In this document: positions 5,475 to 63,229 of the stretch, piece after piece
How the letters are laid out: each line of letters starts with the position of its first letter
Position numbering within the stretch: the first letter of the stretch is position 1
Assembly (NCBI GenBank): GCA_000092065.1
Contig: CP000584.1
Direction: 5' to 3' (one strand)
DNA: 64,000 bases
Source: Ostreococcus lucimarinus
Taxonomy: Eukaryota
Translations under genes and position numbers: made by a program
Notes under the pieces: generated by a model
Told to the model about the DNA's origin: nothing
The model's database searches: none
The model's input: only the letters and a program-made list of their open reading frames with translations

Positions 5475-6167
5475 TCACAACGCGCGTAATTTATCCATGA
5501 TGGTCGGCTCGGGCGCGGGTAATAAATCGCGCGCCTCGTACAGACGCGATAAAATCCTGTCGCGCACCTCCGCGCTCATCTCCGCCGTGGCGCCGTTCTT
5601 CTTGTAAAACGCGCTCAACTCGCGCAGCGCCTCGGCGATGTCGGCGTACGACGCGCTCGAGGACGCCGACGCGCTCCCTCCGCCGCCATCGTACGATATG
5701 TACGCCTTCACCGCCTCCTTGGCCGGTTTCGCGAATTTATACCGCTCTCCCGGGGATTTATTCGCGTTTCGCGCCTCGTGCTCGAGCGACGTCGACAGCG
5801 CGTCGACGAGCTCGCGCGCGACTCTCGCGTAGTCCCTCGGGACGTCCTCCAGCGCGTTCGCCGCGTCCGTCGCCGTCGAGCACGCCCCCGCCGCGAGCGC
5901 GATCGCGTTCGTCGCGAAGAACGTTCGACGTCGCACGTCGCGCGCGTCCGCGCCGCCCGCGCCGTCGTCGTCGCGCGCCGTCGTCGACGTCGCGTCGTCG
6001 CCGCGCACCAGCCCGAGCGCCTCGCAGCGGAAGATTTCCCCGACGCACGGCGTCACGCGCACGAGATTCGCCCTCGAGCGCGGGTCGCACGCGCGCGCGG
6101 ACGCATCGCGTCGCGTCGCGCGCGTCGGCGTCGTCGCGCGCGTCGGCGTCGTCGCGCGCGTCGGCAT
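5475..6167 (-). CDS. Thylakoid-lumen protein, Psb27-like (PSII assembly/repair factor) with a bipartite transit peptide
   Basis: The C-terminal half looks like a real protein: YKFAKPAKEAVKAYISYDGG...SYADIAEALRELSAFYKKNGATAEMSAEVRDRILSRLYEARDLL. This resembles Psb27 (..NDYISRYR...SFTTMQTALNSLAGHYKSYPNRPVPEKLRERL) by memory. The N-terminus has an RR-TFFATNAIALAAGA twin-arginine motif, a hydrophobic stretch and AxA. Start is trimmed to the Met MPTRATT at about 6167. The ORF-table extension to 6479 is an R/A-rich read-through. A 21-bp tandem repeat (6110-6175) encodes TRATTPTRATTPTRAT. Confidence 0.5.
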   Translation of the reverse strand: MPTRATTPTRATTPTRATRRDASARACDPRSRANLVRVTPCVGEIFRCEALGLVRGDDATSTTARDDDGAGGADARDVRRRTFFATNAIALAAGACSTATDAANALEDVPRDYARVARELVDALSTSLEHEARNANKSPGERYKFAKPAKEAVKAYISYDGGGGSASASSSASYADIAEALRELSAFYKKNGATAEMSAEVRDRILSRLYEARDLLPAPEPTIMDKLRAL

Positions 6168-6180
6168 CGCGCGTCGGCGT

Positions 6181-6891
6181 GTGCCGACCAACGGTCTCGT
6201 CGCGCGGCGCGCGCGCGGCCCGCACACGACGACGCGCGTCGCGTCGAGCCGCGTCGAGTCGCGCCGACGGATGGCGACGCCGCGGACGCCGGCGCGCGCG
6301 CGCGCGACGGCGCGCGCGCGCGTCGACGCGCGCCGAGCGACGCGCGCGCGCGCGCGCGGGGAGAGTGCGCGCGCGGCGACGTCGGAAAACGCCGGCGCGC
6401 GCGTCGCGCTCGTCGCCGGCGCGCTCGCGGTGTCGCTGGCGCGCGACGTCGACGTCGCGAGGGCGTTCGTCGGCGACATCGCGCTCGACGACGTGCGGTA
6501 CGAGGCGATGGAGAGGTGTCCGGAGAATCAGTACGTGCCAAACAAACAGAAGACGACGTGCCTGCGGTTCACCGCGCGAGCGACGAATGCGGTGAAAGGA
6601 CGGACGATCGAGAGCGCGAACGTGTTTGGGTTCGTGGAAGACGCGCAAGGGAACAGCGCGGCGACGGTGAACGCGGATGGGAATTCGAGGACGGTGTTGG
6701 CGAGCATCGACGCGCCGATACCGAAGGGCGAGTCCGACGTGCACTTCGTCGTCACGGTGTTCAAGGACTCGTTGGAGAATAATGGGCCGTTGAGATTGAA
6801 AGCGTTCAAGGCGGTGGGATCGGTGGCGGATATCGATAAGCGGTTCACGCCGTTCGACGCGTGCGAGGTCGATCCGGACTCGTGTCTTTGA
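6181..6891 (+). CDS. Hypothetical protein with an R/A/S-rich N-terminus followed by a hydrophobic segment (organelle-targeted?)
   Basis: The ORF ends in an AT-rich 3' region. The mature-looking part is CPENQYVPNKQKTTCLRFTARATNAVKGRTIESANVFGFVEDAQGNS...VHFVVTVFKDSLENNGPLRLKAFKAVGSVADIDKRFTPFDACEVDPDSCL. The N-terminal MATPRTPARARATARA...ARVALVAGALAVSLA looks like a transit peptide plus a signal segment. The real start may be 6271 (MATPRT). It lies head-to-head with the Psb27-like gene. Confidence 0.4.
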   Translation: MPTNGLVARRARGPHTTTRVASSRVESRRRMATPRTPARARATARARVDARRATRARARGESARAATSENAGARVALVAGALAVSLARDVDVARAFVGDIALDDVRYEAMERCPENQYVPNKQKTTCLRFTARATNAVKGRTIESANVFGFVEDAQGNSAATVNADGNSRTVLASIDAPIPKGESDVHFVVTVFKDSLENNGPLRLKAFKAVGSVADIDKRFTPFDACEVDPDSCL

Positions 6892-6986
6892 TTTAGGCGG
6901 TTAATTTAATTACAAGGCGTGTGACGTGTTAAAATGCACATAAATGTTTAAGTCAAACATGCGTCCTCTTAAGACTTCTCTCTGCG

Positions 6987-9995: not shown

Positions 9996-10868
9996 ATGCC
10001 GGCGCGCGCGCGCGGGGCGACGCTCGCGTACGACGTCCCGAGGCTTCGCCTGGACGCCGCGACGCGCGCGGAGGTGGACGCGCTCCTGCGACGACGCGCG
10101 CCGTTGATTTTGGTGGATGACGACGCGCGCGCGCGCGTGCCGCGGTGGACGACGGAGACGCTCGCGCGCGCGGCGAGTCGCGACGCCGTCCCGCTCGAGC
10201 GCACGGGCGCGAACGAACGCGCGTGCGTCTTGACGGAGTATCTCAAGTTTGAAGACGAAGAGACGCGCGGGATGTACATGCGAAACTTGCACCTGTCGCG
10301 GTACTTTCCGAAGCTCGCCGAGGAGATTCGGTTGCCGGAGGATTTGTTCGGCGAGAACGCGCTGGCGGACGAGACGAAAACGCCGAACGCGCCCGCCGTC
10401 TGGCGGAATTGGTTCGAGCTGTTCGTGTGTCACGCGAAGCACTGCGCCGGGTTTCCTTTTTTACATCGCGATTCGTGCTGCGTGCACGCGGCGTCGTATC
10501 AAATTCTCGGTCGCAAGCGCTTCACGCTGTTCGCGCCGAGCGAAGGTCCGCGACTGTACCAATCCGGCGGCACTGGGAATCGTTCGATGATCGAAGACAT
10601 CGACGCCCCGGACGTCTTCGAGCGATATCCAGAGTTTCGACGCGCCCGCCGCTTAACGGTGGACGTCTCGGAGGGGGAAATATTAGTCGTGCCGTCGATG
10701 TGGTGGCACACCGCTTCGCCGCTCCCGTGCGAAGCCTCGGACGACGTCTGCGTCAGCGTCGCCGCGTCCTTCGTCGATGATTCCGTGTACGAAAACTTCT
10801 TAGACGCGCACGCGGAGTTTCAGGCGATGCAAAGCCTCGTCGCCGCCGGCGCGGCGAAGATGTTGTAG
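9996..10868 (+). CDS. JmjC/cupin-fold Fe(II)/2-oxoglutarate oxygenase (JMJD/FIH-like)
   Basis: The 290-aa ORF contains WFELFVCHAKHCAGFPFLHRDSCCVHAASYQILGRKRFTLFAP...GEILVVPSMWWH, a typical JmjC double-stranded beta-helix core with an HxD...H metal triad. Confidence 0.65.
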   Translation: MPARARGATLAYDVPRLRLDAATRAEVDALLRRRAPLILVDDDARARVPRWTTETLARAASRDAVPLERTGANERACVLTEYLKFEDEETRGMYMRNLHLSRYFPKLAEEIRLPEDLFGENALADETKTPNAPAVWRNWFELFVCHAKHCAGFPFLHRDSCCVHAASYQILGRKRFTLFAPSEGPRLYQSGGTGNRSMIEDIDAPDVFERYPEFRRARRLTVDVSEGEILVVPSMWWHTASPLPCEASDDVCVSVAASFVDDSVYENFLDAHAEFQAMQSLVAAGAAKML

Positions 10869-10906
10869 TCGTAACGTACGAAAAGTTCTCAGACTGCGAC
10901 GCCGCG

Positions 10907-12946
10907 ATGCGAAGCGCGTCCGGCGCCGCCGCCTCGACGGCGTCGTCACCGCGCGCGCGCGATCCTCGCGCGCGCCGCGCCGCGCCGCGCGTCGCCGTCA
11001 CCGCGCGCGCGGTGACGCGAGCGGACGCACCGCGCGCGCCGTCGCCCGCGCCCGAGAACGCGGACCAGAACACGCTGCTCGCGACCGCCGCGGTCGTCGG
11101 CGTCGCGAGCGGACTCGCGGTGTCCGCGTTCGCGGCGACGGAGAAGGCGATCAACGTGGTGGCGAGCGCGAGCTGCGCGAGCGTCGGGTGCGACGGCGCG
11201 GCGGCGTTCGGCGCGCTGGATCCGGGAGGAGAACTGGGGAACGCGCTGGGCACGGTCGCGGTGCCAGCGCTCGGAGGATTGTGCGTGAGTGCGCTTCGAG
11301 CGCTCGCGGGGGGGTTCGCGGGAGAACCGGAGCGAGGATGGATGTTTGGGAAGGCGAGCGCGAACGCGGGGAGCGCGAGCACGGACGATTACGCGGGGAT
11401 CGATTTGAATGAGTTCGATGAGAACGAGGACGTCAGGGTCGGCGTTAAGGTGCTCGCGAAGACCGCGGCGGCGGCGATCACACTCGGGACGGGATGTTCG
11501 CTCGGGCCAGAAGGGCCAAGCGTGGAGATTGGCGCGGCGGTGGCGGATCGAGTGGGCGCGGCGTTTCCATCCGTGGCGCCGAATAGATTGGGATTATTAG
11601 CCGCGGGGGCCGCCGCGGGGTTTAGCGCGGGTTTCGGCGCGCCGATTTCCGGGTTGTTCTTCGGGTTTGAGTCAATTCTCGTGCCCGGGTCGAAAGCTGG
11701 TGGTGATGGCGACACCAAAGCTGGCGCGGTGACGACGGAGATGGTCATCTTGGCGAGTGTCTTGGCGACAGTGGCGAGTAAAGCCGTCCTCGGCGCGCTG
11801 CCTTCCGTGGACGTGCCGCCGTTTGAAATTTCGGACTTTGTCGAGCTTCCTTTGTACCTGCCGCTCGGGTTCGCGTGTGGAGTCACCGCCGCTGCTCTGA
11901 GAAAGATGAATGTCGTTTTTGACGATTTCGCGGAGAATTTCGTCGCCGTAGAACGCGAAAAAGGCGGGTTGGGCATTTCTAGAATATGGCACGCCCCGAT
12001 AGGGGGATTTCTGCTCGGCTGCCTGGCGTTGAAGTTTCCTCAGGTGACGTACCAAGGTTTCGATAACGTCAACGCGCTGCTTGTGCAAAACGATGCCGGC
12101 GCTGGTTGGGCCGCGGCGACGTATACTCCATTGGTTCTCGGCGAGTTCGTGCTCGCGAAACTGCTCGCGACGGCGATTTGTCGAGGTTCAGGGTTGGTCG
12201 GTGGCGTATATGCACCTTCTCTATTTTTAGGCGCCGCTTTGGGTACGGCTTTCGGTGGCGCACTGGAATCGACGTATTTCCCACCTATGTTTGTCGCGCC
12301 GCCGCAAGCATACGCGCTCGTCGCCATGGCCGGCGTTCTCGGGGGCGTTTGTCGCGTCCCTCTCACAGCCATATTGCTTTTGTTCGAGCTCACAGGTGAT
12401 TATAGAATAATTTTGCCGCTGATGGGTACCGTCACGGTCGCAACCTCCATCGTGAATTCAGTGGAGACGAGCGCGGTGCCTTTCAGCACGAGCGACATCG
12501 AGACGCGCGGCGTGGCGGCTCTCGCTAGCTCGCTCGTGGCCCGTCCGCGTGATCTCATGAGGAGCGATATCGTCATCATCGATGAGGAGACTACGATTGA
12601 AGCGGCTTCGATGACTCTTTTGAGGGTATCTGATTCCGAAAATCCGCCGCCGTGCGCGTTCGTCGTCGCCGACGGCGTGTTCGTCGGCGTCGTCACTCCG
12701 AGTAGCATCGCGGATGCCATTGTGCAGCGCGGATTTGATACGCGTGCGCGCGTCGCTGAAGCATTGATCGACGTGAAGGTCATAGAGCCCGACGTCAAGT
12801 TACGAGACGTCGACTTCGCCGATGACGGCGCATTCGCCGTCGTTGTCGACTCGTCCAATCAGCCCTTGGGCGTGGTCGAGACTAGCGCGGCGTTGAAGCA
12901 AATGAGTCGCGAGCGTCTTCGTTCTGCCTTGTCTGGCGAATTGTAA
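10907..12946 (+). CDS. ClC-type chloride channel/transporter with C-terminal CBS domains
   Basis: The 679-aa ORF carries the ClC signature motifs GSGLVGGVYAPSLFLGAALG, GPEGP and GFGAPISGLFFGFE. It has many TM helices and a C-terminal CBS pair. Confidence 0.85.
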   Translation: MRSASGAAASTASSPRARDPRARRAAPRVAVTARAVTRADAPRAPSPAPENADQNTLLATAAVVGVASGLAVSAFAATEKAINVVASASCASVGCDGAAAFGALDPGGELGNALGTVAVPALGGLCVSALRALAGGFAGEPERGWMFGKASANAGSASTDDYAGIDLNEFDENEDVRVGVKVLAKTAAAAITLGTGCSLGPEGPSVEIGAAVADRVGAAFPSVAPNRLGLLAAGAAAGFSAGFGAPISGLFFGFESILVPGSKAGGDGDTKAGAVTTEMVILASVLATVASKAVLGALPSVDVPPFEISDFVELPLYLPLGFACGVTAAALRKMNVVFDDFAENFVAVEREKGGLGISRIWHAPIGGFLLGCLALKFPQVTYQGFDNVNALLVQNDAGAGWAAATYTPLVLGEFVLAKLLATAICRGSGLVGGVYAPSLFLGAALGTAFGGALESTYFPPMFVAPPQAYALVAMAGVLGGVCRVPLTAILLLFELTGDYRIILPLMGTVTVATSIVNSVETSAVPFSTSDIETRGVAALASSLVARPRDLMRSDIVIIDEETTIEAASMTLLRVSDSENPPPCAFVVADGVFVGVVTPSSIADAIVQRGFDTRARVAEALIDVKVIEPDVKLRDVDFADDGAFAVVVDSSNQPLGVVETSAALKQMSRERLRSALSGEL

Positions 12947-12957
12947 TTACATTATTT

Positions 12958-17094: not shown

Positions 17095-17592
17095 TCAAGC
17101 CGCGAGCGCCGACAACGTCGGCGACACCGCGACGATTTCGCACGCGCACGCCCGCTCCTGCGACTCGTCCATGTACCCCGTCAAACTCAACGCGCTCCAC
17201 AACTTCCTACGATTCTCGTGCGCCACCTTCACCACGAACGTCCCCGCGAACGCCTCCCCCGCGCCCGCGCGCTCGCCGCCGACGAATTCCACCTCGAACC
17301 CGCCGTCGATCGCCCCGTGCGCCCGTCGCACCGCCGCGCGCACCATCGACTCCAAGCCCGCGCGCGACCACTTCCACGTCGCGTCTCGCGTGATCCTGCG
17401 CGTCGTTCGCGCGCGCGTCGTCGTCGTCAGTCTTCCAGTCTTCGTCCTCCCGCGCGCCTCGCGAGCGCCGACGCGTCCGTTCGCCGTCGCGCGCGCGCCT
17501 CGCCTCGCCTCGCCGACGCACAGTCGTATCCTCACGTACGCCCACCGCGCGCGCGGGAGCTCGAACGTGCGCTGCGCGACGTCGCTATCCAT
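17095..17592 (-). CDS. Hypothetical protein (conserved-looking C-terminal region only)
   Basis: Only the 3' third of ORF 17095..18228 looks protein-like (MDSDVAQRTFELPRARWAYVRIRL...GGFEVEFVGGERAGAGEAFAGTFVVKVAHENRRKLWSALSLTGYMDES). The remainder is R/A-rich read-through overlapping the + gene. Confidence 0.3.
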   Translation of the reverse strand: MDSDVAQRTFELPRARWAYVRIRLCVGEARRGARATANGRVGAREARGRTKTGRLTTTTRARTTRRITRDATWKWSRAGLESMVRAAVRRAHGAIDGGFEVEFVGGERAGAGEAFAGTFVVKVAHENRRKLWSALSLTGYMDESQERACACEIVAVSPTLSALAA

Positions 17593-19697: not shown

Positions 19698-20015
19698 GTG
19701 AAGAGGTGCGCGGAGGCGATTTTCGCGAACGCGCGCGGTGTCGTCGTCTTTCGTGTGCGAAGTGGGATAACGCCTGAACGCAGACTGACGTTTGATTATT
19801 TTTTCGTACGACGCAGCGCCCGTGTCGCGCCGCGCAAGTCCGTCCGCGGCGGCGCCGCCGTGACCAAGGCTTCCATGGTTGAGGTTGCGCAAATCGCCAA
19901 CCAGGGTGCGGAGATTGCGTCTATCGCCACGACGTGCTTCATCATCACCCTCATCGGTCTCGCCTTCGGTTTTGTGCTCCTTCGCGTCGAGGACTCCGTC
20001 GTGAACGGCGAATAA
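19698..20015 (+). CDS. PETM: Cytochrome b6-f complex subunit VII (PetM), nuclear-encoded; last exon plus an in-frame upstream extension
   Basis: The C-terminus MVEVAQIANQGAEIASIATTCFIITLIGLAFGFVLLRVEDSVVNGE matches PetM (spinach ..[34 protein letters not shown]). The in-frame extension back to 19698 (RSARVAPRKSVRGGAAVTKAS) resembles a transit-peptide tail but has no ATG. A candidate 62-nt GTGCGA...CAG intron with a T-rich tract lies at about 19755-19816. Exon 1 with the ATG is unresolved. Confidence 0.55.
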   Translation: MKRCAEAIFANARGVVVFRVRSGITPERRLTFDYFFVRRSARVAPRKSVRGGAAVTKASMVEVAQIANQGAEIASIATTCFIITLIGLAFGFVLLRVEDSVVNGE

Positions 20016-48437: not shown

Positions 48438-48540
48438 CGACATTAAGCATCTAATACAGCATCTAATACACCACAACCGGTGATCACTAACGCGCGACTA
48501 AGCATCTAATACACCACAACTGGTGATCACTAACGCGCGC
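48438..48540. repeat. About 50-bp AT-rich direct repeat (2 copies)
   Basis: agcatctaatacaccacaaccggtgatcactaacgcgcga... is followed by ...agcatctaatacaccacaactggtgatcactaacgcgcgc. A partial third copy (catctaatacagcatctaatac) lies just upstream. The repeat sits between the DMT start and the cyclophilin stop. Confidence 0.8.
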
Positions 48541-49463
48541 GTCGGTTTGATCCACGCCGCCTTGGCCTTTCCCGCCCGCGAATCGCCTACGAGGTTGGCC
48601 AACGCGTTATACGCTCGCGCCGTCTCGCTCGGCTTGAATGTTTTTTCATTCGAAAGCCGCTGCACGACGTCCAAACCTTGTTCGACGCGACCAAAAACGA
48701 TGTTTTTGTTGTCGAGCGACGGTACCGGCGCTGGACCAGTCGTAATGAGAAATTGAGCCGTCGTTCCGTATTCGCCATCCTTCGCCGCTGACTCGAGCGC
48801 CAGACTCACCGTGCCCGGCCTAAAGTGCCGTCCCTCGAACGCGGACGCGCGCGTGACGTCGCCGTTACTAAACCTCTCCCCGCTCAGCGCCGAAACCTGC
48901 CCCAGTCTCGGACTCCCGCTCTTACCTCCGACGACGTACCCGTTGCCTTTGTCGATTTTATGAAACACCGTCCCCGCCAGCGTCGGCGTCGACGCCGCGT
49001 TCGAGCACAGCGCGAGAAAATTCCGCACCGTATCCGGCGCGGCGTCGCCGTACAATCCGACGACGATCCTCCCGAACGGTTCCGGCGTCGCGCACAGCGC
49101 GCCGCCGTCGTCGCCGAGCGCGCGCGCCGCGTTCGCCGCGCCCTCGCACGCGCCCACGTCCAGGTACACCCTCGCCGTGACGTTCGCCGTCGCGTCCATC
49201 GCGCGCGCGCGCGGCGTCATCACCGCCGCCGCGCACGCGCCGACGAGCGTCGCGCGCCGTCCCGTCGTCGCGTCGTCGTCGTCGTCGTCGTCGTCGTTCG
49301 TTTTCCCGTTTTCCAGCCGCGCGCGCCGCGCCGCCGCGCGCGCCGTCCCTCGCGCCGCGCGCGCGTCGCGTCCGACCGCGCGCGCGCTTCCCGCGTCGCG
49401 TCCGACCGCGCGCGCGCTTCCCGCGTCGCGCGCCGTCGCCGCCGCGACGCCGCGCGACGCCAT
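48498..49463 (-). CDS. Divergent cyclophilin-type peptidyl-prolyl isomerase with a twin-arginine lumenal targeting signal (thylakoid-lumen cyclophilin)
   Basis: The cyclophilin-like domain is GRIVVGLYGDAAPDTVRNFLALCSN...GTVFHKIDKGNGYVVGG...FGRVEQGLDVVQRL. The N-terminus is MASRGVAAATARDAGSARAVGRDAGSARAVGRDA... (tandem repeat), followed by an acidic run and then TTGRRATLVGACAAAVMTPRARA (RR, hydrophobic stretch, AxA). The upstream part of ORF 48498..50009 is trimmed. Confidence 0.7.
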   Translation of the reverse strand: MASRGVAAATARDAGSARAVGRDAGSARAVGRDARAARGTARAAARRARLENGKTNDDDDDDDDATTGRRATLVGACAAAVMTPRARAMDATANVTARVYLDVGACEGAANAARALGDDGGALCATPEPFGRIVVGLYGDAAPDTVRNFLALCSNAASTPTLAGTVFHKIDKGNGYVVGGKSGSPRLGQVSALSGERFSNGDVTRASAFEGRHFRPGTVSLALESAAKDGEYGTTAQFLITTGPAPVPSLDNKNIVFGRVEQGLDVVQRLSNEKTFKPSETARAYNALANLVGDSRAGKAKAAWIKPTRALVITSCGVLDA

Positions 49464-51915: not shown

Positions 51916-52092
51916 TCCGAGCGGACGACGCAACCGTGAAGAATAAACACGCATAAACGAAAGTAGCCCGCGCGCCGCCGTACAGTCGGCGCGACTAGCG
52001 AACCATTGTAATCCACCAATTCCTGCATCGACCAGCCGCCGCGTCGTCGAGACGCGCCGCCCGCACACTTCGCCTGGCGCGCCGGTTCTTTC

Positions 52093-52824: not shown

Positions 52825-52923
52825 TTCTCGCGAGTAGCAATCGCGTGGGATGAATGGGTAGTGTGTATATTACGAGAACTAAAACATGTTTGATCCTCCA
52901 CGAACGCGAAAATCATTTCGCTA

Positions 52924-53970: not shown

Positions 53971-54649
53971 GGTCGCGGTCGGAGCAATGGAACTCCGAAT
54001 TCGATTTCGACTTCGCGTCGCCTCGCGCGCGTTCGACGGCGCCCCGCGCGCCGCCGCTCGACCCGCGCGCGACGCGCGCGCGCGCTCGACGCTCGCTCGC
54101 GCGCGACCGCGCGCGTGCGTGCGAGACGCGGTGCGACGCGCAATGCCGCCGACGCCGAGTGGCGGCGGCAGAATGACGCTCGCCGGCGTCGCGACCGCGC
54201 CGCGCGCGCTCGCGGACACGCGACGGGCGACGATGGCGAAGACGATCGTCGGCGCGCTCGCGCCGCTCGTCGCGGCGCGCGCGCGCGCGAGCGACGGCGT
54301 CGTGATCGTGGAAGAAACCGTCGGTCGCGGCGTCGAGGTGCTCGCCGGCGTCGACGTCGTCAAGGTGAATTACACCGTCGCGCTCGCGTCGAGCAAGGCG
54401 AGGGTCGACTCGGCAAAGTTTTTCGTCTTCGGCGTCGGCGCCGGAGAGGTGGTCGAAGGATTCGACGCGATCGTGGGCGGGGACGGGGCGACGCCGCCGA
54501 TGCGCGTCGGCGGCGCGCGAAGAGCGGTGGTGCCGGCGGCGCTGGCGTACGGCGATCGCGGCGCGGGGTGCGATAAGACGGGAAATGCGTGTTCGATTCC
54601 GCCAGGGGAAGATTTAGAGTTCACCGTGGAGCTTTTAGAGGTCAAGTGA
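53969..54649 (+). CDS. FKBP-type peptidyl-prolyl isomerase with a bipartite transit peptide (thylakoid-lumen FKBP13-like)
   Basis: The FKBP domain is GVDVVKVNYTVALASSKARVDSAKFFVFGVGAGEVVEGFDAIVGGDGATPPMRVGGARRAVVPAALAYGDRGAG...IPPGEDLEFTVELLEV. It is preceded by an R/A/S-rich stretch and DTRRATMAKTIVGALAPLVAARARA (RR Tat motif, hydrophobic stretch, AxA). The start is either 53969 (MVAVGAMELRI...) or 54143 (MPPTPSGGG). Confidence 0.75.
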   Translation: MVAVGAMELRIRFRLRVASRAFDGAPRAAARPARDARARSTLARARPRACVRDAVRRAMPPTPSGGGRMTLAGVATAPRALADTRRATMAKTIVGALAPLVAARARASDGVVIVEETVGRGVEVLAGVDVVKVNYTVALASSKARVDSAKFFVFGVGAGEVVEGFDAIVGGDGATPPMRVGGARRAVVPAALAYGDRGAGCDKTGNACSIPPGEDLEFTVELLEVK

Positions 54650-54682
54650 CGCGGCGCGCGTTGCTTTGTAAATTACAGCGAC

Positions 54683-55945: not shown

Positions 55946-56037
55946 CGTCGGCGCGCGAGGGAGTGACGCGCGATCGCGATCGCGCGGGCGTAACGACTTT
56001 GCACCGCGCGGGCGTCACTCGTCGACGCGCGCGCGCG

Positions 56038-56370
56038 ATGGCGACGTCGGCGCGCGACGTCGGCGCGAGGGACGACTCGCGAGACGCGGTGACGGCGTTC
56101 GCGAGCGCGGGGGCGGCGTCGCTCGCGAGCGCGGTGTATTTCTGGAGGAAACGCGCGACGATGCCTTTTAAAATCAGCGCCGCGGCGACGTGGTTGACCG
56201 CGGGACCGGCGGCGGTGCTGTGGTACGCCCCGTCGCGGGCGTCGCTGGAGCGGGAGTTGGCGGAGAAGGCGGCGGCGCGAGGGGCGAGCGCGCGCGAGGA
56301 CGCGATACGGCGCGACGGGGTCGCGGCGGCGAGGACGCTGTTGGAGAAGAGAGCGAGCGAGGAAAGCTAG
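56038..56370 (+). CDS. Possible small membrane protein (2 hydrophobic segments)
   Basis: It lies in the 430-bp gap between the SCS-beta start and the SET stop. MATSARDVGARDDSRDAVTAFASAGAASLASAVYFWRKRATMPFKISAAATWLTAGPAAVLWYAPSRASLERELAEKAAARG... I recognise no family. Confidence 0.25.
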   Translation: MATSARDVGARDDSRDAVTAFASAGAASLASAVYFWRKRATMPFKISAAATWLTAGPAAVLWYAPSRASLERELAEKAAARGASAREDAIRRDGVAAARTLLEKRASEES

Positions 56371-56376
56371 GAGAAA

Positions 56377-57369
56377 CTACGGGTGGGCTAGACTATTCGC
56401 GGCGCGCTGTTCGCCCGCCGCGCAGCGGGAACACGCGCAATCGAAGGCGTAGGAATTCGCGAGACGCGCGCGTCTGGCGTCGCGCGGAGAATCGGCGTCC
56501 ACGTACGTTATCGTGAGCTCTTCGCCCGGAGCGATTTCGCGAAGCGCGCGAATCGTGAGCGACGAATCGCCGTTTTCCCAGTGCGTGTGACAGTTGGGCG
56601 CGCACGAGTGATTGAGTAGGGACACGTACTTGTATACCGCCGAACCCGACGCGGTGCCTTGCGTGATGGCGTCCAATCCGGCGGATAGGACGTCCTTGAA
56701 ATCCGTCGTCGACGCCGCGGCGTCGACTGGAATTTCCACTCGGAACGAGTTTAAATGAAGACGGGACGTGATTCCGGCGTACCACGCGGGTGTGATGATA
56801 TCTTTCCCCGCGTCGCCGAATGCTCGTCGCAACACATCGCACTCTTCGAGCCACTGCGCGGGCGGATTGGTTTCCACGTCGTTCGCCGCGCACAACCATT
56901 CCAGCGTGCTCTTGTTCAACGCTCCGCTGGCGATCATAGACGCCGCTCTGGCGGTGATCAAAGGAAATTTTAAACCACCATTCTTTTCGCAGTACGCTTC
57001 GAGCTCGCTCAAATCCACCCCGTGCGTCTTTTCGAAATCGCCGTACGCCAATCGACGCGCGTCGGCGCACGATTCGCACGTCGCCCCGCCCGCGGACGCC
57101 CGCAAGCACCACTCGCACCTCGATCGCGCGTTGTCCATGGTTCTGTGCCACATCAACGGTCTTTCCCGCGATATGACCGCCTCGTTCGCCGCCAGCGCGC
57201 GCGCGGCGTACGCCCCTCGCCCCGAACGCGCCGTCGCGCCGATGAAGAACGCATCCTCGGCCCCGTACGTGGGCACGCTTTTCGACGCATCCGTGCGATG
57301 CGAGCGCGCGTCCGACCGCCGCGCGCGCGCGCGAGAAGCTCTCGCGCACCGCCGCGCCGCCGCGCGCAT
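56377..57369 (-). CDS. SET-domain protein-lysine methyltransferase (SMYD/LSMT-like with an inserted Cys-rich region)
   Basis: The SET core and post-SET read ...LLNHSCAPNCHTHWENGDSSLTIRALREIAPGEELTITYVD...AFDCACSRCA. A Cys-rich insert is CEWCLRASAGGATCESCA. Start is trimmed to MRAAARRCA at about 57369. Confidence 0.75.
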   Translation of the reverse strand: MRAAARRCARASRARARRSDARSHRTDASKSVPTYGAEDAFFIGATARSGRGAYAARALAANEAVISRERPLMWHRTMDNARSRCEWCLRASAGGATCESCADARRLAYGDFEKTHGVDLSELEAYCEKNGGLKFPLITARAASMIASGALNKSTLEWLCAANDVETNPPAQWLEECDVLRRAFGDAGKDIITPAWYAGITSRLHLNSFRVEIPVDAAASTTDFKDVLSAGLDAITQGTASGSAVYKYVSLLNHSCAPNCHTHWENGDSSLTIRALREIAPGEELTITYVDADSPRDARRARLANSYAFDCACSRCAAGEQRAANSLAHP

Positions 57370-57494
57370 GCGATCGCGCTCGGCGATGCGCTCTGCGGCG
57401 CCGCGCGCGCGAGCGTTGGATGACTGACAATGGATAACGCGGGAAACGAGACGGCACACCTCGACGCCGCGCTCGCGAGCGATCGCGCGCCGCG

Positions 57495-58712
57495 ATGACC
57501 GTCGCGCGAACGATGCAAACCTCGCCCGTCGTCCGCGCGCGCGCGACGACGCTCGCGAAGCGCTCGAACCGACGCGCGGCGACGAAAACGATCGTCACGC
57601 GCGCGAGCGCGGGCGACGCCTGGGGACCGTGCTCGTGCCACGGCGGCGCGCATCTCTCGAGCGAGCGCAAGGCTGAGCTCGAGGCGGTGTGCGCGGCGAT
57701 CGGACAGGCGGGGAAAGGGATCACGGCGTGCGATGAGGGACCGGGGACGATCGGGATGCGGTTCGAGAACGTGGGGGTGACGAATACGGAGGAAAACCGA
57801 CGGGCGTATCGACAAATGTTGTTCGAAACGCCCGGGGCGAACAAGTACCTGAGCGCGGCTATTTTGGACCCGGAAACGTTGTATCAAAAGAGCACGACGA
57901 ACGGGAAGCTGTTCCCGGAGGTGCTGAGCGAACTCGGCATCGTGCCGGGCGTGAAACCGCACTTGAAGGTGTACGCGCTGCCGGGCCAGAGCGGAGCGAC
58001 GGTGATGCAAGGCTTGGACTCGCTCGCGGTGCGATTGCAAGAGTACAAAGACGCCGGGTGCAAATTCGCCAAATGGCGCTCGCCGTTGGAGATTGACTTG
58101 GCCACCGGTCAGCCGAGCGAGCTCACCATCGAGACGAACATGAAGGATTTGGCGCGATACGCGTTGATTTGCCAAGACGTCGGCTTGGTGCCGATCGTGG
58201 AGCCGGATATTTCTCTCAAGGGTGATCACGACCTTGAGACCGCGGTTCGCGTGAACGTCAAGGTGCAGAGCATGCTGTTCAAGTCGATGCTCGACCACGG
58301 CGTGTACATGGAAGGCGCGCTCCTCAAGTCCAACATGGTGAACCCGGGTAAGAAGTGCAAGACCAACTACACCGTGGACGAACTCGCGATTGCGAATCTG
58401 CAAGTCTTCCGTCGATGCTTCCCGACCGCCATGGTGAGCGCCAACTTCTTGTCCGGCGGCCAATCGCTCGAAGACGCCGCTGCTCGCCTCGATGCCATCA
58501 ACAAGCACAAGTCCGCGAAGGATCCTTGGAACTTGTCTTTCTCCTGGTCTGCGGCGCTGCAGATGCCACTTTTCGAGCTTTGCCGAGGTAAGACTGAGCT
58601 TCCGCTCAAGGAGATGGGTGACTTGTACATCGCCGAATTGGAAAAGGCAGGCGCCGCCGCGCTCGGCCAATATTCGCGCAACGGCAAGGAGGGCGACCAC
58701 TCCGCCAAGTAA
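57495..58712 (+). CDS. FBA: Fructose-1,6-bisphosphate aldolase, class I, with a plastid transit peptide
   Basis: Full-length colinear with class I aldolases: ..LSAAILDPETL...IVPGVKPH.., the active-site region LVPIVEPDISLKGDHD (Schiff-base Lys), LSGGQS and a C-terminal Tyr-region. The N-terminal 40 aa are R/A/T-rich. Confidence 0.95.
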   Translation: MTVARTMQTSPVVRARATTLAKRSNRRAATKTIVTRASAGDAWGPCSCHGGAHLSSERKAELEAVCAAIGQAGKGITACDEGPGTIGMRFENVGVTNTEENRRAYRQMLFETPGANKYLSAAILDPETLYQKSTTNGKLFPEVLSELGIVPGVKPHLKVYALPGQSGATVMQGLDSLAVRLQEYKDAGCKFAKWRSPLEIDLATGQPSELTIETNMKDLARYALICQDVGLVPIVEPDISLKGDHDLETAVRVNVKVQSMLFKSMLDHGVYMEGALLKSNMVNPGKKCKTNYTVDELAIANLQVFRRCFPTAMVSANFLSGGQSLEDAAARLDAINKHKSAKDPWNLSFSWSAALQMPLFELCRGKTELPLKEMGDLYIAELEKAGAAALGQYSRNGKEGDHSAK

Positions 58713-58936
58713 GACGGCGTCGTACCACCACCGTCGCGAGTGATATCATATCATATCGAAAATCTCGCGTACGTCGCGCGTATCCCGTATTTTTAATACA
58801 CGCATCCTCTACCTGCCTCTCGCACCGTCGCTCGCTCGACCAAAAAGCGCATCCAGCAGCGACCATCTTTATCCACGTCATTCACGCGCGCGAGCGGTGC
58901 AGGTCTGCGATCCAATCGCCTAACACGCGTGTCGCA

Positions 58937-60184
58937 ATGTTCGCTCCGTCAATTTCGCGCGCGACGCCGTGTGTGGCGCTCGAGCGCGCCACGACAACGC
59001 GACGAACCACCCGCAGACGTCATCACAACACGCGCGCATCGACGCCCGATGACGCGTCCGCGCCGCCTGCGCTCGCGCGTTCGCGGCGCGACTTCGTTCG
59101 CGACGCTGTTTTACTGTCGACGCTCGGCGTTGGGCTCGCGGCGCGCGCGGATGCGGACGTCGACGTCGACGTCGCGCCCGCGGCGGCGACGAAGACGCCG
59201 TGCGTGCTGATAACCGGCGCCAATTCAGGCGTGGGGTACACGGCGGCGAAACAGATCGCCGCGCAGGGCAAGACAGTCGTTATCGCGTGCAGAAGCGTGC
59301 ATAAGGCTGAGCAAGCGGCTCGAGAGTTGAAGGAAGACGTCGGCGCGAACGCGAAGGTGGTGACGCTGCCAGTCGGTTTGGAACTCACGGATTTGGCGAG
59401 CGTGCGCGAGTATGCGCTCGCGTTTTTAGATCGTTCGGATTTGGCACTCGAGGCATTGGTGTGTAACGCCGGGATCATGGCGGCGCCGTTGGAGCGCACC
59501 ACGCAAGGACACGAATTGCACTTCGGTATTAACCATTTGGGACATTTTTTACTCGCCGACGCGCTGACGCCGGCGTTGAGAGAAACCAAAGGGCGCGTCG
59601 TGAGCGTATCGAGTTTGCTCTCGATGATTGGCGATTTCGCGTTGGACTTAGACGACTTAGATTGGAACAGACGCGAGTACGACCCTTGGTACGCGTACGG
59701 TGCGTCGAAGGCGCAAAACGTCTTGTTCGCCGACGAATTCGCTCGCCGCGAAGGCAAGAATGGTATCGTGGCGAACAGTTTGCACCCAGGAATCGTAACG
59801 ACCAATTTAGTCCGTTATTCGGTGCCCGACTTGGTGCAGTCCAAGCGTGATTTGGCGAAAGAGCGCGAGAGCTTCGCGGGGCGACTCGCGGCGAAAGCTG
59901 GCATTCGCAACCCGGACGAAGGCGGCCGGACGTCCGTCTGGCTCGCCACTTCCGATGCCGCGGCGAAAGAAACCGGCAAGTTCTTCATTGATCCTGGTTT
60001 GGTTTACCCGGGTGCCACGCGCGCGCAACTCGTCGAAGCTGGCGACTGGTTCTTGTCGAGTGGTACCGAGTTTTTGGCGCCGCAGCTCGGGATGCCGGAA
60101 AAATTGTTTGAATGGCGCACCGAGGCTAACGCGACCGCGCTCTGGTCAAAGTCGCAAGAGATGGTGAGCAAGTACACAATCTAG
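58937..60184 (+). CDS. Short-chain dehydrogenase/reductase (retinol-dehydrogenase/TIC32-like classical SDR) with an N-terminal twin-arginine-type signal
   Basis: CVLITGANSGVGYTAAKQIA (TGxxxGxG) ... NAG ... YAYGASKAQN (YxxxK) ... HPGIVTTNL. The N-terminus ...ALARSRRDFVRDAVLLSTLGVGLAARADA has an SRRxF motif, a hydrophobic stretch and AxA. Confidence 0.85.
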   Translation: MFAPSISRATPCVALERATTTRRTTRRRHHNTRASTPDDASAPPALARSRRDFVRDAVLLSTLGVGLAARADADVDVDVAPAAATKTPCVLITGANSGVGYTAAKQIAAQGKTVVIACRSVHKAEQAARELKEDVGANAKVVTLPVGLELTDLASVREYALAFLDRSDLALEALVCNAGIMAAPLERTTQGHELHFGINHLGHFLLADALTPALRETKGRVVSVSSLLSMIGDFALDLDDLDWNRREYDPWYAYGASKAQNVLFADEFARREGKNGIVANSLHPGIVTTNLVRYSVPDLVQSKRDLAKERESFAGRLAAKAGIRNPDEGGRTSVWLATSDAAAKETGKFFIDPGLVYPGATRAQLVEAGDWFLSSGTEFLAPQLGMPEKLFEWRTEANATALWSKSQEMVSKYTI

Positions 60185-60231
60185 TCTTCGCAATTAAATA
60201 CAGCACATTGACGCCGCGCGTCTACCAACGT

Positions 60232-61095
60232 TCACGAAGCGTCAACCACCGCTGGTAATTCTTCATCGCTCTCCAACTCAAACGTTTGCACGCTCGTGTC
60301 GTTGAACGCGCCTTGCACGGCAAACGTATCCCCCGGATCAAGCAGTGATGCGCGAGCGATGGACGACGCCGCGATGACGTGCGAGGGTCGCTTCTTCTCG
60401 GGATCCGCGCTCTTCGCTCGCCATCGATCGGCGTACGTCTCAAACGTGTTCCCGACGCACACTAAATCTCTCAACGCGCCCACGCTCCAACGCGCGCGAA
60501 CGACGTCTTCGTACAAGTGTCCCTCACAATGCGGCATGTAAAACACCACCAACTCATCCCTCGTCGACGAAGACGCCGACACGTACTCGTCGCACCTTTC
60601 CCGCGTCAACGTCTCGCATTCGTCGCCGTCGCCCGCGAGCACCTTTTCGTCCACAATCGTAAAGCACGGATCGTACGCCTTCAACCGCACGCGCGTCGCG
60701 TCGTCGTTCGACCGTTCGCGCAACCGCTCGCACGCGCGCGACGCGAACGCGAGCTGACACCTCGCCGCCGCGCTCGCGTCCGGCGACCCCAAACCCAACG
60801 CGAGCACCGTCACCGCCCGCCCGCGCGCGCGCGTCGCCGCCGCGTCGCGCACCGCGTCGACGGCGGCGTCCAGGCGCGACGCCGCGCGCACGTCCGCCGT
60901 CGCGCGTTCGACGCGCGTCGCGCACGCGGCGACGCGCGCGGCGAGTTCTTCCGCCGACAGCGCCGCTTCCTCGGCGCGCGCGTCGACGGCGCGGTTCGTC
61001 GCCGCCGCGCGCGCGGCGAGCGCGGCCTCGGCCCTGGCGCCGATCGCGCGCTTACCCGCGCGCGTCACCGGCGTCCAGGCGTCGTCGGGCGCCAT
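60232..61095 (-). CDS. SRR1-domain protein (SENSITIVITY TO RED LIGHT REDUCED 1 family)
   Basis: ...RAVTVLALGLGSPDASAAARCQLAFA...LKAYDPCFT..DEKVL...ELVVFYMPHCEGHLYEDVVRARWS has SRR1-family spacing and the FYMPHC motif. Start is probably MAPDDAW at about 61095. ORF 60232..61344 extends further upstream. Confidence 0.55.
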   Translation of the reverse strand: MAPDDAWTPVTRAGKRAIGARAEAALAARAAATNRAVDARAEEAALSAEELAARVAACATRVERATADVRAASRLDAAVDAVRDAAATRARGRAVTVLALGLGSPDASAAARCQLAFASRACERLRERSNDDATRVRLKAYDPCFTIVDEKVLAGDGDECETLTRERCDEYVSASSSTRDELVVFYMPHCEGHLYEDVVRARWSVGALRDLVCVGNTFETYADRWRAKSADPEKKRPSHVIAASSIARASLLDPGDTFAVQGAFNDTSVQTFELESDEELPAVVDAS

Positions 61096-61388
61096 CGCGC
61101 CGCCGCGACGTCGCGCGCGCGGTGTGACGTTTCGCGACGGCGCGCGCGCGTCGGCCGCGTCGCGCGACGGCGCGCCCGTAACTTTCGCGAGCTCGCGGCG
61201 CGCGACGCGCGCCGCTTGGCTTACGGGTACACTAAATACGCACTGTACCTGAAAGTGTCCGAACCCTAAATTTTTTTGTTTACGACGCGAACCGACGGTT
61301 TTGACGCGACACTCTCGAGGCGACGCTCGGGCGTTACGACGCACACGACGACGCGCGAGGACGACGACGACGACGACGCGCGAGGACG

Positions 61389-61977
61389 ATGCGGGTGCAC
61401 ATCAAGCCCAGGCTGCAGCAGGAGAAGTGGAGCCTGTACTGGAAGACGTCGATGTCCACGAGAACGTTCGCGCTCGACGAATTCGACTTGGAGGTGAAGC
61501 ACGACGAGACGACGGCGAAGGAGGTGAGGACGCGCGAAAACTTTGAAATGCGGCATTCGATGACGTTTCACGCGCGCAGGTGAAGGCGAGAGTGGCGGAG
61601 TTCATCGGGCTCCCGCCCGTGGAGACGTTGCATCGATTGGAAGAGTTCGTCGAGCCTTGGGAGTTGATGTGCGCGCGAGACGACGCGACGGCGACGGCGA
61701 AGACGCGACTCCGTCGATAGTCTCGCGAAACGTGACTGACTGCGTCGTGAATTGACCTGTGTTTCCGATTTAAAACAGTATGTATAACGGCCGCGAGCTC
61801 GATGACGGCAAAACGCTCGCCGCGTGCGGCGTTCCGGCCGAAGACGGCGTGAGCGTCGTCGTCGTACGCAAGCAGCTCGTCGCCGAAGGTTGGAAGCTAC
61901 GATTTGAAGATAACGAAGACTCGGACACGGAAGACGACGATTTTTAAGCCATCGTAACGACGCGCGCGGATGTAACG
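61389..61977 (+). CDS. ELOB: Elongin B-like ubiquitin-fold protein; multi-exon (at least 2 introns)
   Basis: Exon 1 is MRVHIK...TFALDEFDLEVKHDETTAKE. A 56-nt GTGAGG...CGCAG intron follows. Exon 2 is VKARVAEFIGLPPVETLHRL.. Another intron ends at the acceptor ttccgatttaaaacag. The last exon is (M)YNGRELDDGKTLAACGVPAEDGVSVVVVRK...EDNEDSDTEDDDF-stop. Compare elongin B ..[40 protein letters not shown]. Exact exon 2/3 junctions are unresolved. Confidence 0.6.
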
Positions 61978-62002
61978 TAACGTGATCATGAGAAGCGTGC
62001 GA

Positions 62003-63229
62003 TTACATTGCGGGTTCCTCCGCGTCTTGCGTCTCGGGCGCCGATTTCGTGAACTCGGCCTCGAACGCCATGACTTGTGATTCCGCCGCTTGCACGGCTT
62101 CGCGGTCCATGAGCGCCAAGAATTCGTCCAACTTCCCGATCGCGCTCTTGCTCGCCTTGCTCGAAAACTTGGCGTACTCGGCGGCTTTGCCGCCTCCGAC
62201 GGCGCCCATGTTCTCGAAATACTTCGAGTAGTTGACCTTTTCCATGTACTCCAAGAAATCGAACGCGATCTCGCGCGCCTTTTGCTCTTTACTCCCGCTC
62301 AAGTACGCCGCGGCTTTGAATAGATTATCCTTCACGTTGTTCGGCGGTCCCACGACGCGACTCACCGTCGAGTTCAACTCGTCCCACGCGCCGTCCTCCG
62401 CCAACGTCGCCGCCCTGCGCAGCAACTCCCGACTCCGCACCACGGGCACCAAATAAAAGAACAACGGTTTCACCGGCTCCGGGCTCTCGATCGAGATCTG
62501 ACTCAGCCCCACGAACGCCGCCGTCAGCGCCGCGCCGACGATCGCTCGTCGCCGCACCGTCTTCTCCTCCTCCTCCGTCATCCCAGCCTCACCGACCCCA
62601 CCCGCCTCGCTCGGCTGTTCGCGCACCAAGAACTCCATTCCATCTTTCAACCACGCGTCGCCCTCGCTCCTCGTTCCGAACAGCGTCTCTCGCTTTCCGA
62701 CGCCGTCCACGCGCGCCTTGCCCGTCGTCCCGCGCGGCGTCTCGCGCGCCAGCTCGTCCACCGTCTTCACCGTCGCCGCGCCGCCGCTCTTCGCCTCCAG
62801 CGCCGCGCGCAGGCGCTCGCGATCCTCCTCCGCGCGTTTCAGCCGCTCGACGACGTCCGCGAGCGACGCCTCGCTCAGCGGCGCGTCGTCGCCGTCGTCG
62901 TCGCGCGACGTCGACGCGCGTCGCGATCGCCGCGCGTCGCCTCGTCGCGCGCGTCGCCTCGTCGCCGCGCGGACGCGCGACGACGCGCCGCGCGTCGTCG
63001 TCGTCGTCGCGCGCGCGCGCATGGCGTCGCGTCGCGTCGCGTCGCGGCGTCGCGCGTCGCCGTCTCGCGCGTCGTCACTTCGCGCGTCGATGCGACGCGC
63101 GGCGTCGACGCTTCGCTTCGCGGCGCGACGCGAGGCCTCGAGCGCGAGCGCGCGAAGGGTCGTCTCGGGATCGGCGTCGCGCGCGCGCGTCGGGACGGCG
63201 CGTCGCGCGCGCGCGCGCGCGGCGAGCAT
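62003..63229 (-). CDS. Thylakoid-lumen protein with a Tat signal and a PsbQ-like helical C-terminal domain (assignment tentative)
   Basis: ...EEKTVRRRAIVGAALTAAFVGLSQISIESP has an RR motif and a hydrophobic stretch. It is followed by LFFYLVPVVRSRELLRRAATLAEDGAWDELNSTV..NVKDNLFKAAAYLSGSKEQKAREIAFDFLEYMEKVNYSKYFEN... (a 4-helix PsbQ-like feel). A long R/D-rich, coiled-coil N-terminal region precedes it. The start Met is uncertain (MLAARARARR at about 63226, or internal). Confidence 0.45.
   Translation of the reverse strand: MLAARARARRAVPTRARDADPETTLRALALEASRRAAKRSVDAARRIDARSDDARDGDARRRDATRRDAMRARATTTTTRGASSRVRAATRRRARRGDARRSRRASTSRDDDGDDAPLSEASLADVVERLKRAEEDRERLRAALEAKSGGAATVKTVDELARETPRGTTGKARVDGVGKRETLFGTRSEGDAWLKDGMEFLVREQPSEAGGVGEAGMTEEEEKTVRRRAIVGAALTAAFVGLSQISIESPEPVKPLFFYLVPVVRSRELLRRAATLAEDGAWDELNSTVSRVVGPPNNVKDNLFKAAAYLSGSKEQKAREIAFDFLEYMEKVNYSKYFENMGAVGGGKAAEYAKFSSKASKSAIGKLDEFLALMDREAVQAAESQVMAFEAEFTKSAPETQDAEEPAM

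Follow-up and report, generated by a model that had tools for sequence, protein, structure and literature searches.

A short-chain dehydrogenase/reductase with a conserved twin-arginine signal among predicted thylakoid-lumen proteins in a 64-kb window of Ostreococcus lucimarinus

A stretch of 64,000 nucleotides from the green alga Ostreococcus lucimarinus (assembly GCA_000092065.1, contig CP000584.1; the whole stretch is hereafter called the window) encodes a classical short-chain dehydrogenase/reductase (SDR) of the NADP(H) type whose presequence carries a signal of the twin-arginine translocation (Tat) type. The twin arginine (RR) of this signal is invariant among 19 orthologues, and the SDR is a credible candidate for a new class of enzyme in the thylakoid lumen. 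An earlier note had put forward five proteins of the window as Tat-delivered lumen proteins, namely a Psb27-like protein, a divergent cyclophilin, an FKBP, the SDR and a PsbQ-like protein. All five open reading frames (ORFs) and the peptides quoted for them were found in the window, and each of the five proteins bears an RR and a hydrophobic stretch. The proposal stands for Psb27, the cyclophilin (CYP28), the FKBP and the SDR, where RR is fixed across orthologues, but not for the PsbQ-like protein, where RR lies about 157 residues into the protein and no AxA follows. Taken as a whole, the reading that four of the proteins are Tat-targeted lumen proteins, that the PsbQ-like protein is membrane-anchored and that the genes lie together by coincidence appears reasonably probable.

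Taken by itself, the succession of RR, hydrophobic region (h-region) and AxA does not rise above chance in this arginine- and alanine-rich proteome. When all six-frame ORFs were scanned strictly for it, three of the five candidates went undetected and non-genic ORFs matched, and a relaxed rule, used uniformly on 35 gene models, returned the five together with four more: a Na/Ca exchanger with a signal of the endoplasmic reticulum (ER) type, a loop inside an EamA transporter and two ORFs whose starts are doubtful. As the pattern is uninformative alone, the evaluation rests on orthology and on the evolution of the presequences. By these measures, conservation raises four of the five proteins above chance, their RR being invariant or nearly so within a presequence that is otherwise variable.

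In the SDR, R50 and R51 are invariant in 19/19 orthologues, down to 45% identity, while the other arginines of the presequence drift. The context of the RR in these sequences, [ST]RR[DAE][FVI][VL], is close to SRRxFLK, the consensus that figures among the published criteria for Tat signals alongside a moderately hydrophobic, Gly/Ser-rich h-region (PMC7317946). The h-regions of the SDR family are 10–27 aa long, Gly/Ser-rich, weakly hydrophobic and variable in both sequence and spacing (29–57 aa from RR to the core), and in 18/19 sequences their best 19-residue Kyte–Doolittle window does not exceed about 1.5–1.6, against a threshold of ~1.6 for a transmembrane helix. The C-terminal region (c-region) of the signal reads AARADA and holds a basic residue; in most orthologues it is a small-x-small sequence that cannot be aligned, which is weak evidence in an alanine-rich proteome. 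Ahead of the RR lie 49 aa rich in S, T, R and A and resembling a transit peptide, and the corresponding region of the orthologues is 33–90 aa long, variable and disordered (one orthologue model, P0030, has its RR at residue 5 and is probably truncated). In the AlphaFold2 model, residues 1–81 are disordered except for a short helix at residues 50–58, which begins at the RR. The gene model itself is matched by an identical, complete 415-aa ORF in an MMETSP transcriptome, so that the start of the SDR gene holds, whereas the starts first assigned to the PsbQ-like, FKBP and PetM genes do not.

The remainder of the protein falls in the POR/RDH/WWOX branch of the classical SDRs. Judged by its residues it is catalytically intact: the cofactor motif TGxxxGxG (T93-G94-x3-G98-x-G100) and the N177/S225/Y254/K258 tetrad are invariant in the 19 orthologues. 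Also invariant are R119 and K123, which align without gaps to Arg38 and Lys42 of the protochlorophyllide oxidoreductase (POR) of T. elongatus, residues that lie at the 2'-phosphate of NADPH and set coenzyme specificity (PMC4970445); by this match the SDR is an NADP(H)-type enzyme. Chains of light-dependent POR (LPOR) make up ten of the top eleven structural matches. Assignment of the protein as an LPOR was nevertheless rejected, given a score of 103.1 bits against the TIGR01289 equivalog cutoff of 331.35 and an identity to LPOR of only 23–28%. The SDR is thus alike to LPOR and to the RDH11-14/WWOX/Tic32 enzymes in fold, branch, TGxxxGxG motif, N-S-Y-K tetrad and the ACRxxxK residues at the NADPH 2'-phosphate, but differs from them in its Tat-type signal and in a lineage-specific C-terminal extension, both of which those enzymes lack. 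In an exhaustive profile search of 1.8 billion representatives, the extension was confined to the Mamiellophyceae-like orthologue group, and among the 150 representatives listed only five (P0015, P0337, P0339, P0344 and P0347) matched that part of the profile.

The high-scoring relatives of the SDR include several proteins in which two or three SDR domains stand in tandem and an RR presequence is lacking, such as P0026 (645 aa), P0338 (967 aa), P0341 (655 aa) and others. One database entry identical to the window SDR (P0258, NCBI MDA9627171.1) is deposited as 'SDR family NAD(P)-dependent oxidoreductase [bacterium]', and a relative of CYP28 (P0182) is likewise labelled '[bacterium]'; contigs of picoeukaryotes have apparently been binned into bacterial metagenome-assembled genomes.

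Three of the other proteins are ordinary, in that their counterparts in plants are known lumen proteins. The guess that the first of them was Psb27-like is borne out by a full-length match to PF13326 (profile positions 1–140 of 140; E 2.4e-33; 115.8 bits against a cutoff of 25). Its relatives in metagenome contigs are 55–100% identical. Residues R80, R81, F83, F84, A85 and N87 are invariant in 11 sequences, and RRxFFATN is kept in 10 relatives (55–90% identity) between variable flanks. Two Arabidopsis proteins with the same full-length domain and a twin-arginine signal ahead of the mature domain, PSB27 (At1g03600) and LPA19/Psb27-H2 (At1g05385), are listed as Tat-imported lumenal factors for the assembly and repair of photosystem II (PMC3813922). 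The window protein differs from both in an unusually conserved presequence block, RSRAxLVRVxPCxGE, upstream of the RR. This block (in full RSRAxLVRVxPCxGE..R..ALG; positions 6012–6080, minus strand, aa 30–52) lies ~30 residues upstream of the RR and is conserved in relatives that are only 55–66% identical overall. Transit peptides normally show no such conservation.

The protein described in the earlier note as a divergent cyclophilin is, according to a one-directional search, an orthologue of CYP28. It is 39–43% identical, over 96–97% of the mature domain, to land-plant proteins named 'CYP28, chloroplastic'. Further orthologues occur in Chlamydomonas, Volvox, Coccomyxa and Chlorokybus, one relative is named CYP19-4, and generic cyclophilins score far lower. 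RR and an h-region are present in 19/19 aligned orthologues, angiosperms included, and in these sequences both the length of the h-region (12–26 aa) and its distance from the mature domain vary. With Arabidopsis CYP28 the protein shares the divergent cyclophilin core, a C-terminal extension and an RR signal found across green algae and angiosperms, and AtCYP28 (At5g35100) is present in the measured Arabidopsis lumen proteome (PMC8346976). The proposal of a lumen protein therefore fares well here.

The proposal of a Tat-type lumen protein is likewise supported for the FKBP, but its start needs correcting. Position 53969 falls within the start codon of a divergently transcribed TPR gene (52924-53970, minus strand), whose N-terminus matches an orthologue in a related contig, and was rejected on that ground; more realistic is a start at the ATG at 54143, with 26 residues ahead of the RR. 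The closest match in the PDB is AtFKBP13 (1u79, E 2.5e-18), followed by the lumenal NDH subunit PnsL4 (FKBP16-2), the second-best solved relative (E 2.5e-13). RR, h-region and AxA are kept both in the close orthologue on contig L001 (STRRRMVFGAPMLALL...RADA) and in a distant one on contig L005 (NKRRSVLLLLSTVTVLVPVIATTEAALA), which is 50% identical and very different in composition. All lumenal FKBPs of Arabidopsis are described as Tat substrates (PMC3813922). The 168-aa protein has two cysteines only, a C-terminal CxxxxxC pair, which sits at the position of a disulfide of Arabidopsis FKBP13 (At5g45680; 1u79/1y0o) within the motif GAGC.....C.IPP; the Tat-type signal is a further likeness between the two. 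The protein is thus best called an ordinary lumenal-type FKBP, probably 'FKBP13-like' rather than a proven FKBP13 orthologue. In the L005 orthologue (3850-4428), a run of 11 glutamates stands directly past the predicted cleavage site. The TPR and FKBP genes of the window are divergent, with 172 bp between their start codons, and their pairing is kept in both L001 and L005, suggesting that a shared bidirectional promoter may exist.

The layout of the SDR recurs beyond its orthologues. RR and an h-region precede the Rossmann core in other N-terminally extended members of the SDR branch, those from Pyramimonas, Mesostigma viride, Spirogloea muscicola, Odontella aurita and Mediolabrus comicus among them. 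In three sequences of diatom type (P0396, P0398 and P0478) an ER signal peptide stands before the RR, with an ASAF-like junction in two of the three, a layout that would correspond to the tripartite form expected of lumenal proteins in secondary plastids. Counted without hand-picking, 17/49 N-extended representatives have RR and an h-region, compared with 4.1 expected from composition-matched shuffles.

For the four proteins with a conserved signal, we infer a two-part presequence, in which a variable transit peptide would direct import into the stroma and the conserved twin-arginine signal would then take over. Import would proceed through the translocons of the chloroplast envelope (TOC/TIC), the transit peptide would be removed, and the protein would fold in the stroma before crossing the thylakoid membrane in folded form via the chloroplast Tat translocase, with cleavage after AxA. 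In the case of the SDR, NADP(H) would be bound in the stroma and the holoenzyme carried across, as with bacterial glucose–fructose oxidoreductase (GFOR), to act, on the lumenal side of the membrane, upon a hydrophobic substrate resembling a pigment or a lipid. For the SDR, this succession of stromal import, cofactor loading, Tat crossing and lumenal activity, as predicted from sequence, seems to us somewhat better than an even bet. GFOR of Zymomonas mobilis is a mechanistic analogue only. It is also an NADP-containing oxidoreductase, whose cofactor is bound in the cytoplasm and which Tat exports as a folded holoenzyme into a compartment without a pyridine-nucleotide pool, but its fold family (Gfo/Idh/MocA) is unrelated and it serves the bacterial periplasm.

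Several points weigh against this picture. Family membership, conservation of the signals and likeness of fold are what the sequences and models show; the targeting and transport of all these proteins, the carriage of the cofactor and the nature of the substrate are prediction. An RR followed by an h-region, being unspecific, is also found in 4 of ~30 other gene models. Transcript support for the 5' end was obtained here for the SDR gene only. The FKBP lacks the N-terminal pair of the two cysteine pairs of AtFKBP13, and its L005 orthologue has lost both C-terminal disulfide cysteines as well and so has neither pair. AtFKBP13 has two redox-active disulfide pairs. For the PsbQ-like protein, several orthologue models have no transit peptide, so that its plastid targeting is not secure. 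The profile used in the SDR search took in columns of the presequence, which favours RR-bearing distant homologues in the ranking; these are only 29–37% identical and may be non-orthologous, so that a common origin of the SDR signal is not established. Most directly, no lumenal NADP(H) pool is known, which counts against an SDR cycling catalytically in the lumen. Nucleotide-dependent processes of the lumen are called 'contentious' (PMC3813922), and term searches of the main text of two Arabidopsis lumen papers (PMC3813922, PMC8346976), the tables and supplements of which were only partly covered, brought up no SDR. A literature search joining twin-arginine, SDR and thylakoid returned nothing relevant by title or abstract. 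The remark in the earlier note that lumenal SDRs are rarely described is therefore, if anything, an understatement, none having been found in these searches.

It is also possible that the SDR is not lumenal, its RR and weakly hydrophobic stretch being part of a stromal transit peptide or a peripheral or N-terminal membrane tether, and that it works at the stromal face of the thylakoid, at the envelope or in some other compartment with a supply of NADPH. The missing lumenal cofactor pool and the lack of an SDR in the term searches of the two lumen papers fit this explanation, as does the behaviour of related proteins: POR, Tic32-type SDRs and ROQH1 act in a stromal-side manner, and the LPORs, the closest structural relatives, are stromal-side, membrane-associated NADPH enzymes. 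ROQH1 of Arabidopsis was considered as a precedent for a lumenal SDR and dropped as such; it resembles the window protein as an SDR-superfamily member acting on the thylakoid antenna system (qH relaxation), but it is an atypical SDR and is described as associated with stroma-lamella membranes (PMC8614926), whereas the window SDR is classical with its tetrad intact. RR dipeptides are moreover common in arginine-rich presequences, that of the SDR holds three, and the weak hydrophobicity of its h-region points the same way. However, only the RR directly ahead of the h-region is positionally invariant, and the motif S/T-RR-x-F/V-L/V-K/R, with a putative AxA-type site and a basic c-region residue behind it, has the hallmarks of a Tat signal (PMC7317946). 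Even an N-in anchor with a stromal RR would leave the catalytic domain on the lumenal side, this layout is seen again in distant algae, the tripartite diatom-type form among them, and the Tat export of NADP-loaded GFOR indicates that a missing cofactor pool is no absolute obstacle. A non-lumenal SDR is accordingly judged unlikely, if still a serious contender, and the SDR does deserve a closer look, as the earlier note held.

The fifth protein is of a different kind. The start proposed for the PsbQ-like gene, 63229, gives way to 63022, the start of an identical database model (P0122) of 339 aa that begins with M; its RRR falls at residues 157–159 and is thus not N-terminal. The search brought up no more than 37 relatives, none labelled as anything but unnamed or hypothetical (one of them, an 'unnamed product' of Ostreococcus tauri, is 70% identical), and the family was detected solely in Mamiellophyceae-like sequences. 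The ~100 residues before the RR are strongly conserved, with many columns invariant across 20 sequences, and many orthologue models begin right at this domain, the RR lying at residue 94–223 depending on the model. The hydrophobic segment that follows is 17–19 aa long and conserved in sequence, has no AxA and is separated from the next motif by 27 residues (18/20 sequences) or 29 (2/20). Its fixed length and sequence, the conserved domain upstream and the lack of AxA led us to read it as a retained membrane anchor rather than a cleavable Tat signal, and on this sequence evidence the protein looks like a membrane-anchored one rather than a cleavable Tat substrate. It would be a single-pass thylakoid protein with its conserved N-terminal domain in the stroma, an RR-flanked anchor oriented by the positive-inside rule and, on the lumenal side, a PsbQ-like bundle of four helices. 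The comparison with PsbQ itself stands only in part: the C-terminal domain appears to resemble PsbQ at the level of fold, but neither the sequence-level match nor the N-terminal Tat signal was borne out, as phmmer, a search of the family profile against the PDB and Pfam searches on 20 members at E up to 5 were all negative for PsbQ. In contrast to PsbQ, CyanoQ, PsbQ' and PnsL2-3 (PF05757), the window protein would be anchored by a transmembrane segment, has a conserved coiled-coil N-terminal domain of ~100 residues and has no cleavable signal.

The PsbQ-like protein may nonetheless be handled by Tat, either with an unusually long n-region and cleavage or with an uncleaved signal-anchor of the Rieske type, and the count of five Tat clients would then stand. 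In the chloroplast, the Rieske protein keeps its anchor uncleaved when Tat inserts it. The RR is invariant in 20/20 family members, as TVxRR directly ahead of the hydrophobic segment, and the C-terminal domain, a compact bundle of helices, might already be folded when it is transported; in Arabidopsis, every PsbQ and PsbQ-like protein is given as a Tat substrate (PMC3813922). However, the invariance of RR says little, because the whole region is highly conserved in a narrow family, and RR is equally explained by the positive-inside rule. The ~100 conserved residues before it would need to remain stromal, and the segment shows neither an AxA nor variation in length. Transport of this protein by Tat is therefore considered rather improbable, and retention as a membrane anchor is preferred.

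The five genes were described in the earlier note as an enrichment rather than an operon, and this description is apt: they lie on both strands with housekeeping genes between them and are neither contiguous nor co-oriented. For a window of 36 genes, and assuming 40–80 lumenal proteins per 8,000–10,500 genes, 0.14–0.36 lumenal genes are expected where four or five are observed; under these assumed fractions, and for a category defined post hoc, the genome-wide p is ~0.004–0.11 for at least four lumenal genes and 1e-4 to 0.008 for at least five. Contig L001, whose SDR is 80% identical, has the same order, UBP-CYP28-...-TPR-FKBP-SCSbeta-SET-aldolase-SDR-SRR1-(319-aa ORF), the last ORF being the putative PsbQ-like gene, and contig L005 (SDR 47% identical) retains TPR-FKBP-SCSbeta...SET-aldolase-SDR-SRR1. 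The neighbourhood might thus have been retained for coordinated expression of lumenal proteins. In keeping with such a functional explanation are the nominally unusual count, the span of 14.7 kb (48498-63229) that takes in four of the five genes, the retention of the arrangement in L001 and of the FKBP–SDR linkage in L005, and the presence of plastid-related genes close by (PetM, an N-extended aldolase, a DUF1997 protein and a transporter of the Na/sulfate-symporter type). However, the five genes are never adjacent, being separated by Fcf1, SCS-beta, SET, SRR1 and UBP genes that are equally syntenic, and in L003 and L005, the two distant contigs, no PsbQ-like gene stands at the corresponding place (a 447-aa neighbour of the SDR in L003, tried as its orthologue, shows no similarity). 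A functional cluster seems distinctly unlikely, and the co-location is probably a coincidence on ordinary inherited synteny.

The nearest gene upstream of the SDR, in the same orientation, encodes a class-I aldolase (57495-58712, plus strand) with an N-terminal extension of ~60 residues, which suggests a plastid isoform. The gap between the two genes is only 35 bp in L001 (8760-11392), and their adjacency is kept in L005 (8566-11341), at 47% SDR identity; in L003 a DLH gene lies between them. Approximately 5 kb downstream of the SDR orthologue in L003 is a very large phytochrome-type gene (10054-15128, minus strand; ~1,958 aa) with the layout PAS-GAF-PHY-HisKA-HATPase-receiver.

Table 1. Coordinates, strands and supporting evidence for the features discussed, numbered from the first nucleotide of the window
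Feature	Position	Strand	Evidence or remark
Psb27-family gene, 230-aa model	5475..6167	-	PF13326
Psb27 Tat-type signal RRRTFFATNAIALAAGACSTATDAANA, aa 79-105 (predicted)	5853..5933	-	RR conservation
PetM (cytochrome b6f subunit VII), 3' coding part	19698..20015	+	PF08041, 31.6 bits vs cutoff 25.1
Na/Ca exchanger	38772-40583	+	starts MRVARRASSALVALVALVALVACAPARA; RR at residue 5, very hydrophobic h-region, AxA
CYP28-orthologous cyclophilin gene, 321-aa model	48498..49463	-	PF00160, E 2e-21
CYP28 Tat-type signal RRATLVGACAAAVMTPRARA, aa 69-88 (predicted)	49200..49259	-	RR conservation
FKBP13-like lumenal-type FKBP gene, corrected 168-aa model	54143..54649	+	FKBP_C, E 2e-14
FKBP Tat-type signal RRATMAKTIVGALAPLVAARARA, aa 27-49 (predicted)	54221..54289	+	orthologue conservation
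Classical NADP(H)-type SDR, POR/RDH/WWOX branch, 415 aa	58937..60184	+	adh_short, E 6e-25
SDR Tat-type signal RRDFVRDAVLLSTLGVGLAARADA, aa 50-73 (predicted)	59084..59155	+	RR invariance
SDR C-terminal extension GDWFL..LAPQL..WRTEAN..LW..S.EM	59987..60181	+	conserved in A1, A4
Single-pass membrane protein gene, PsbQ-like C-terminal domain, 339-aa model (identical to P0122)	62003..63022	-	database model, starts with M
PsbQ-like four-helix-bundle domain (predicted), aa 187-326	62045..62464	-	predicted lumenal
PsbQ-like RRR + predicted transmembrane anchor AIVGAALTAAFVGLSQISI, aa 157-178	62489..62554	-	fixed hydrophobic segment
PsbQ-like conserved N-terminal domain, coiled coil + DGxGxRE..FG..GDAWLxDGMxFL..QPSE	62606..62878	-	predicted stroma-facing

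The window as a whole is ordinary nuclear DNA of a compact green alga, with a G+C content of 63% and ~36 genes in 64 kb. The gene map was built from Pfam and synteny; gene calling by G+C at third codon positions was dropped because antisense frames score high too and the signal is not sharp enough. The Pfam assignments of the long ORFs are those usual for a eukaryotic nuclear genome and include DNA polymerase phi, gamma-adaptin, a Sec7/BIG exchange factor, sedlin, a KNOX/ELK homeobox protein, ubiquitin hydrolase, Nop16, Fcf1, succinyl-CoA ligase beta, class-I aldolase, SRR1, a SET protein and a CLC channel. Judged from these contents alone, the KNOX gene, the dense packing of genes and the 70%-identical O. 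tauri homologue suggest a member of the Mamiellophyceae, probably Micromonas-like. The Sec7/BIG gene (31490-36775, minus strand) stands out in composition, its third-position G+C being 0.64 against ~0.7–0.9 in its neighbours, and the interval 32001–36000 within it has 52.6% G+C compared with 59–67% elsewhere.

PetM had been counted as a further photosynthetic-membrane protein, and its family is confirmed by PF08041; it is a thylakoid membrane protein, and neither a Tat nor a lumen protein. Its proposed start at 19698 is a GTG of the bacterial code and was discarded. The sole in-frame ATG, at 19875, would leave no transit peptide, which makes an upstream exon likely; inspection of the upstream DNA for an exon with an ATG found none. 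Another plastid-targeted gene of the window may be that at 17171-18433 (plus strand), which encodes a 420-aa protein with a long N-terminal extension and no RR signal; its match to DUF1997 is borderline, at 26.8 bits just under the cutoff of 27. The DUF1997 family is typical of cyanobacteria and plastids. NCBIfam gave no match for Psb27, the PsbQ-like protein or the DUF1997 protein.

Two further ORFs were considered as Tat candidates and set aside. The Na/Ca exchanger (MRVARRASSALVALVALVALV...) has no transit peptide and a strongly hydrophobic h-region, and its signal was read as ER-type; it illustrates how readily the RR-h-AxA pattern arises in this genome. An ORF at 43344-44882, considered as a sixth candidate, has an RR and h-region at residue ~123, but this RR lies in low-complexity sequence, and the conserved part of the protein is a C-terminal SWIM-type zinc finger. 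The zinc-finger motif (CFPAHFCSCRSFFWECVNRGEALACKH; 43344 to ~43700, minus strand) is unreported by Pfam, and the low-complexity upstream two-thirds of the ORF overlap the 5' end of the UBP ORF.

The three familiar lumen genes merely confirm the standard lumenal helpers in a prasinophyte and are of little consequence. The PsbQ-like protein, if truly related to PsbQ, would represent a new way to attach a PsbQ-type module to the thylakoid membrane, a smaller point than that raised by the SDR. More broadly, and only tentatively, since we would place it somewhat short of an even chance, a conserved and intact family of NADP(H)-type, POR/RDH-like SDRs may work in the lumen of prasinophytes, streptophyte algae and diatoms, delivered by Tat with the cofactor already loaded. 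Its targets might, speculatively and by analogy with violaxanthin de-epoxidase, be membrane pigments approached from the lumenal side, and in the Mamiellophyceae, equally speculatively, micromonal, uriolide and prasinoxanthin, which have been described as xanthophylls specific to that lineage (PMC5867620). If true, pyridine-nucleotide chemistry would take place in a compartment where none is established, and the SDR would be either a GFOR-like catalyst with non-dissociable NADP and redox-neutral chemistry or a sign of an unrecognised lumenal supply of NADP(H). The lumen is thought to be free of NAD(P)H chemistry, and an SDR with a conserved Tat signal gives a concrete, testable handle on that view.

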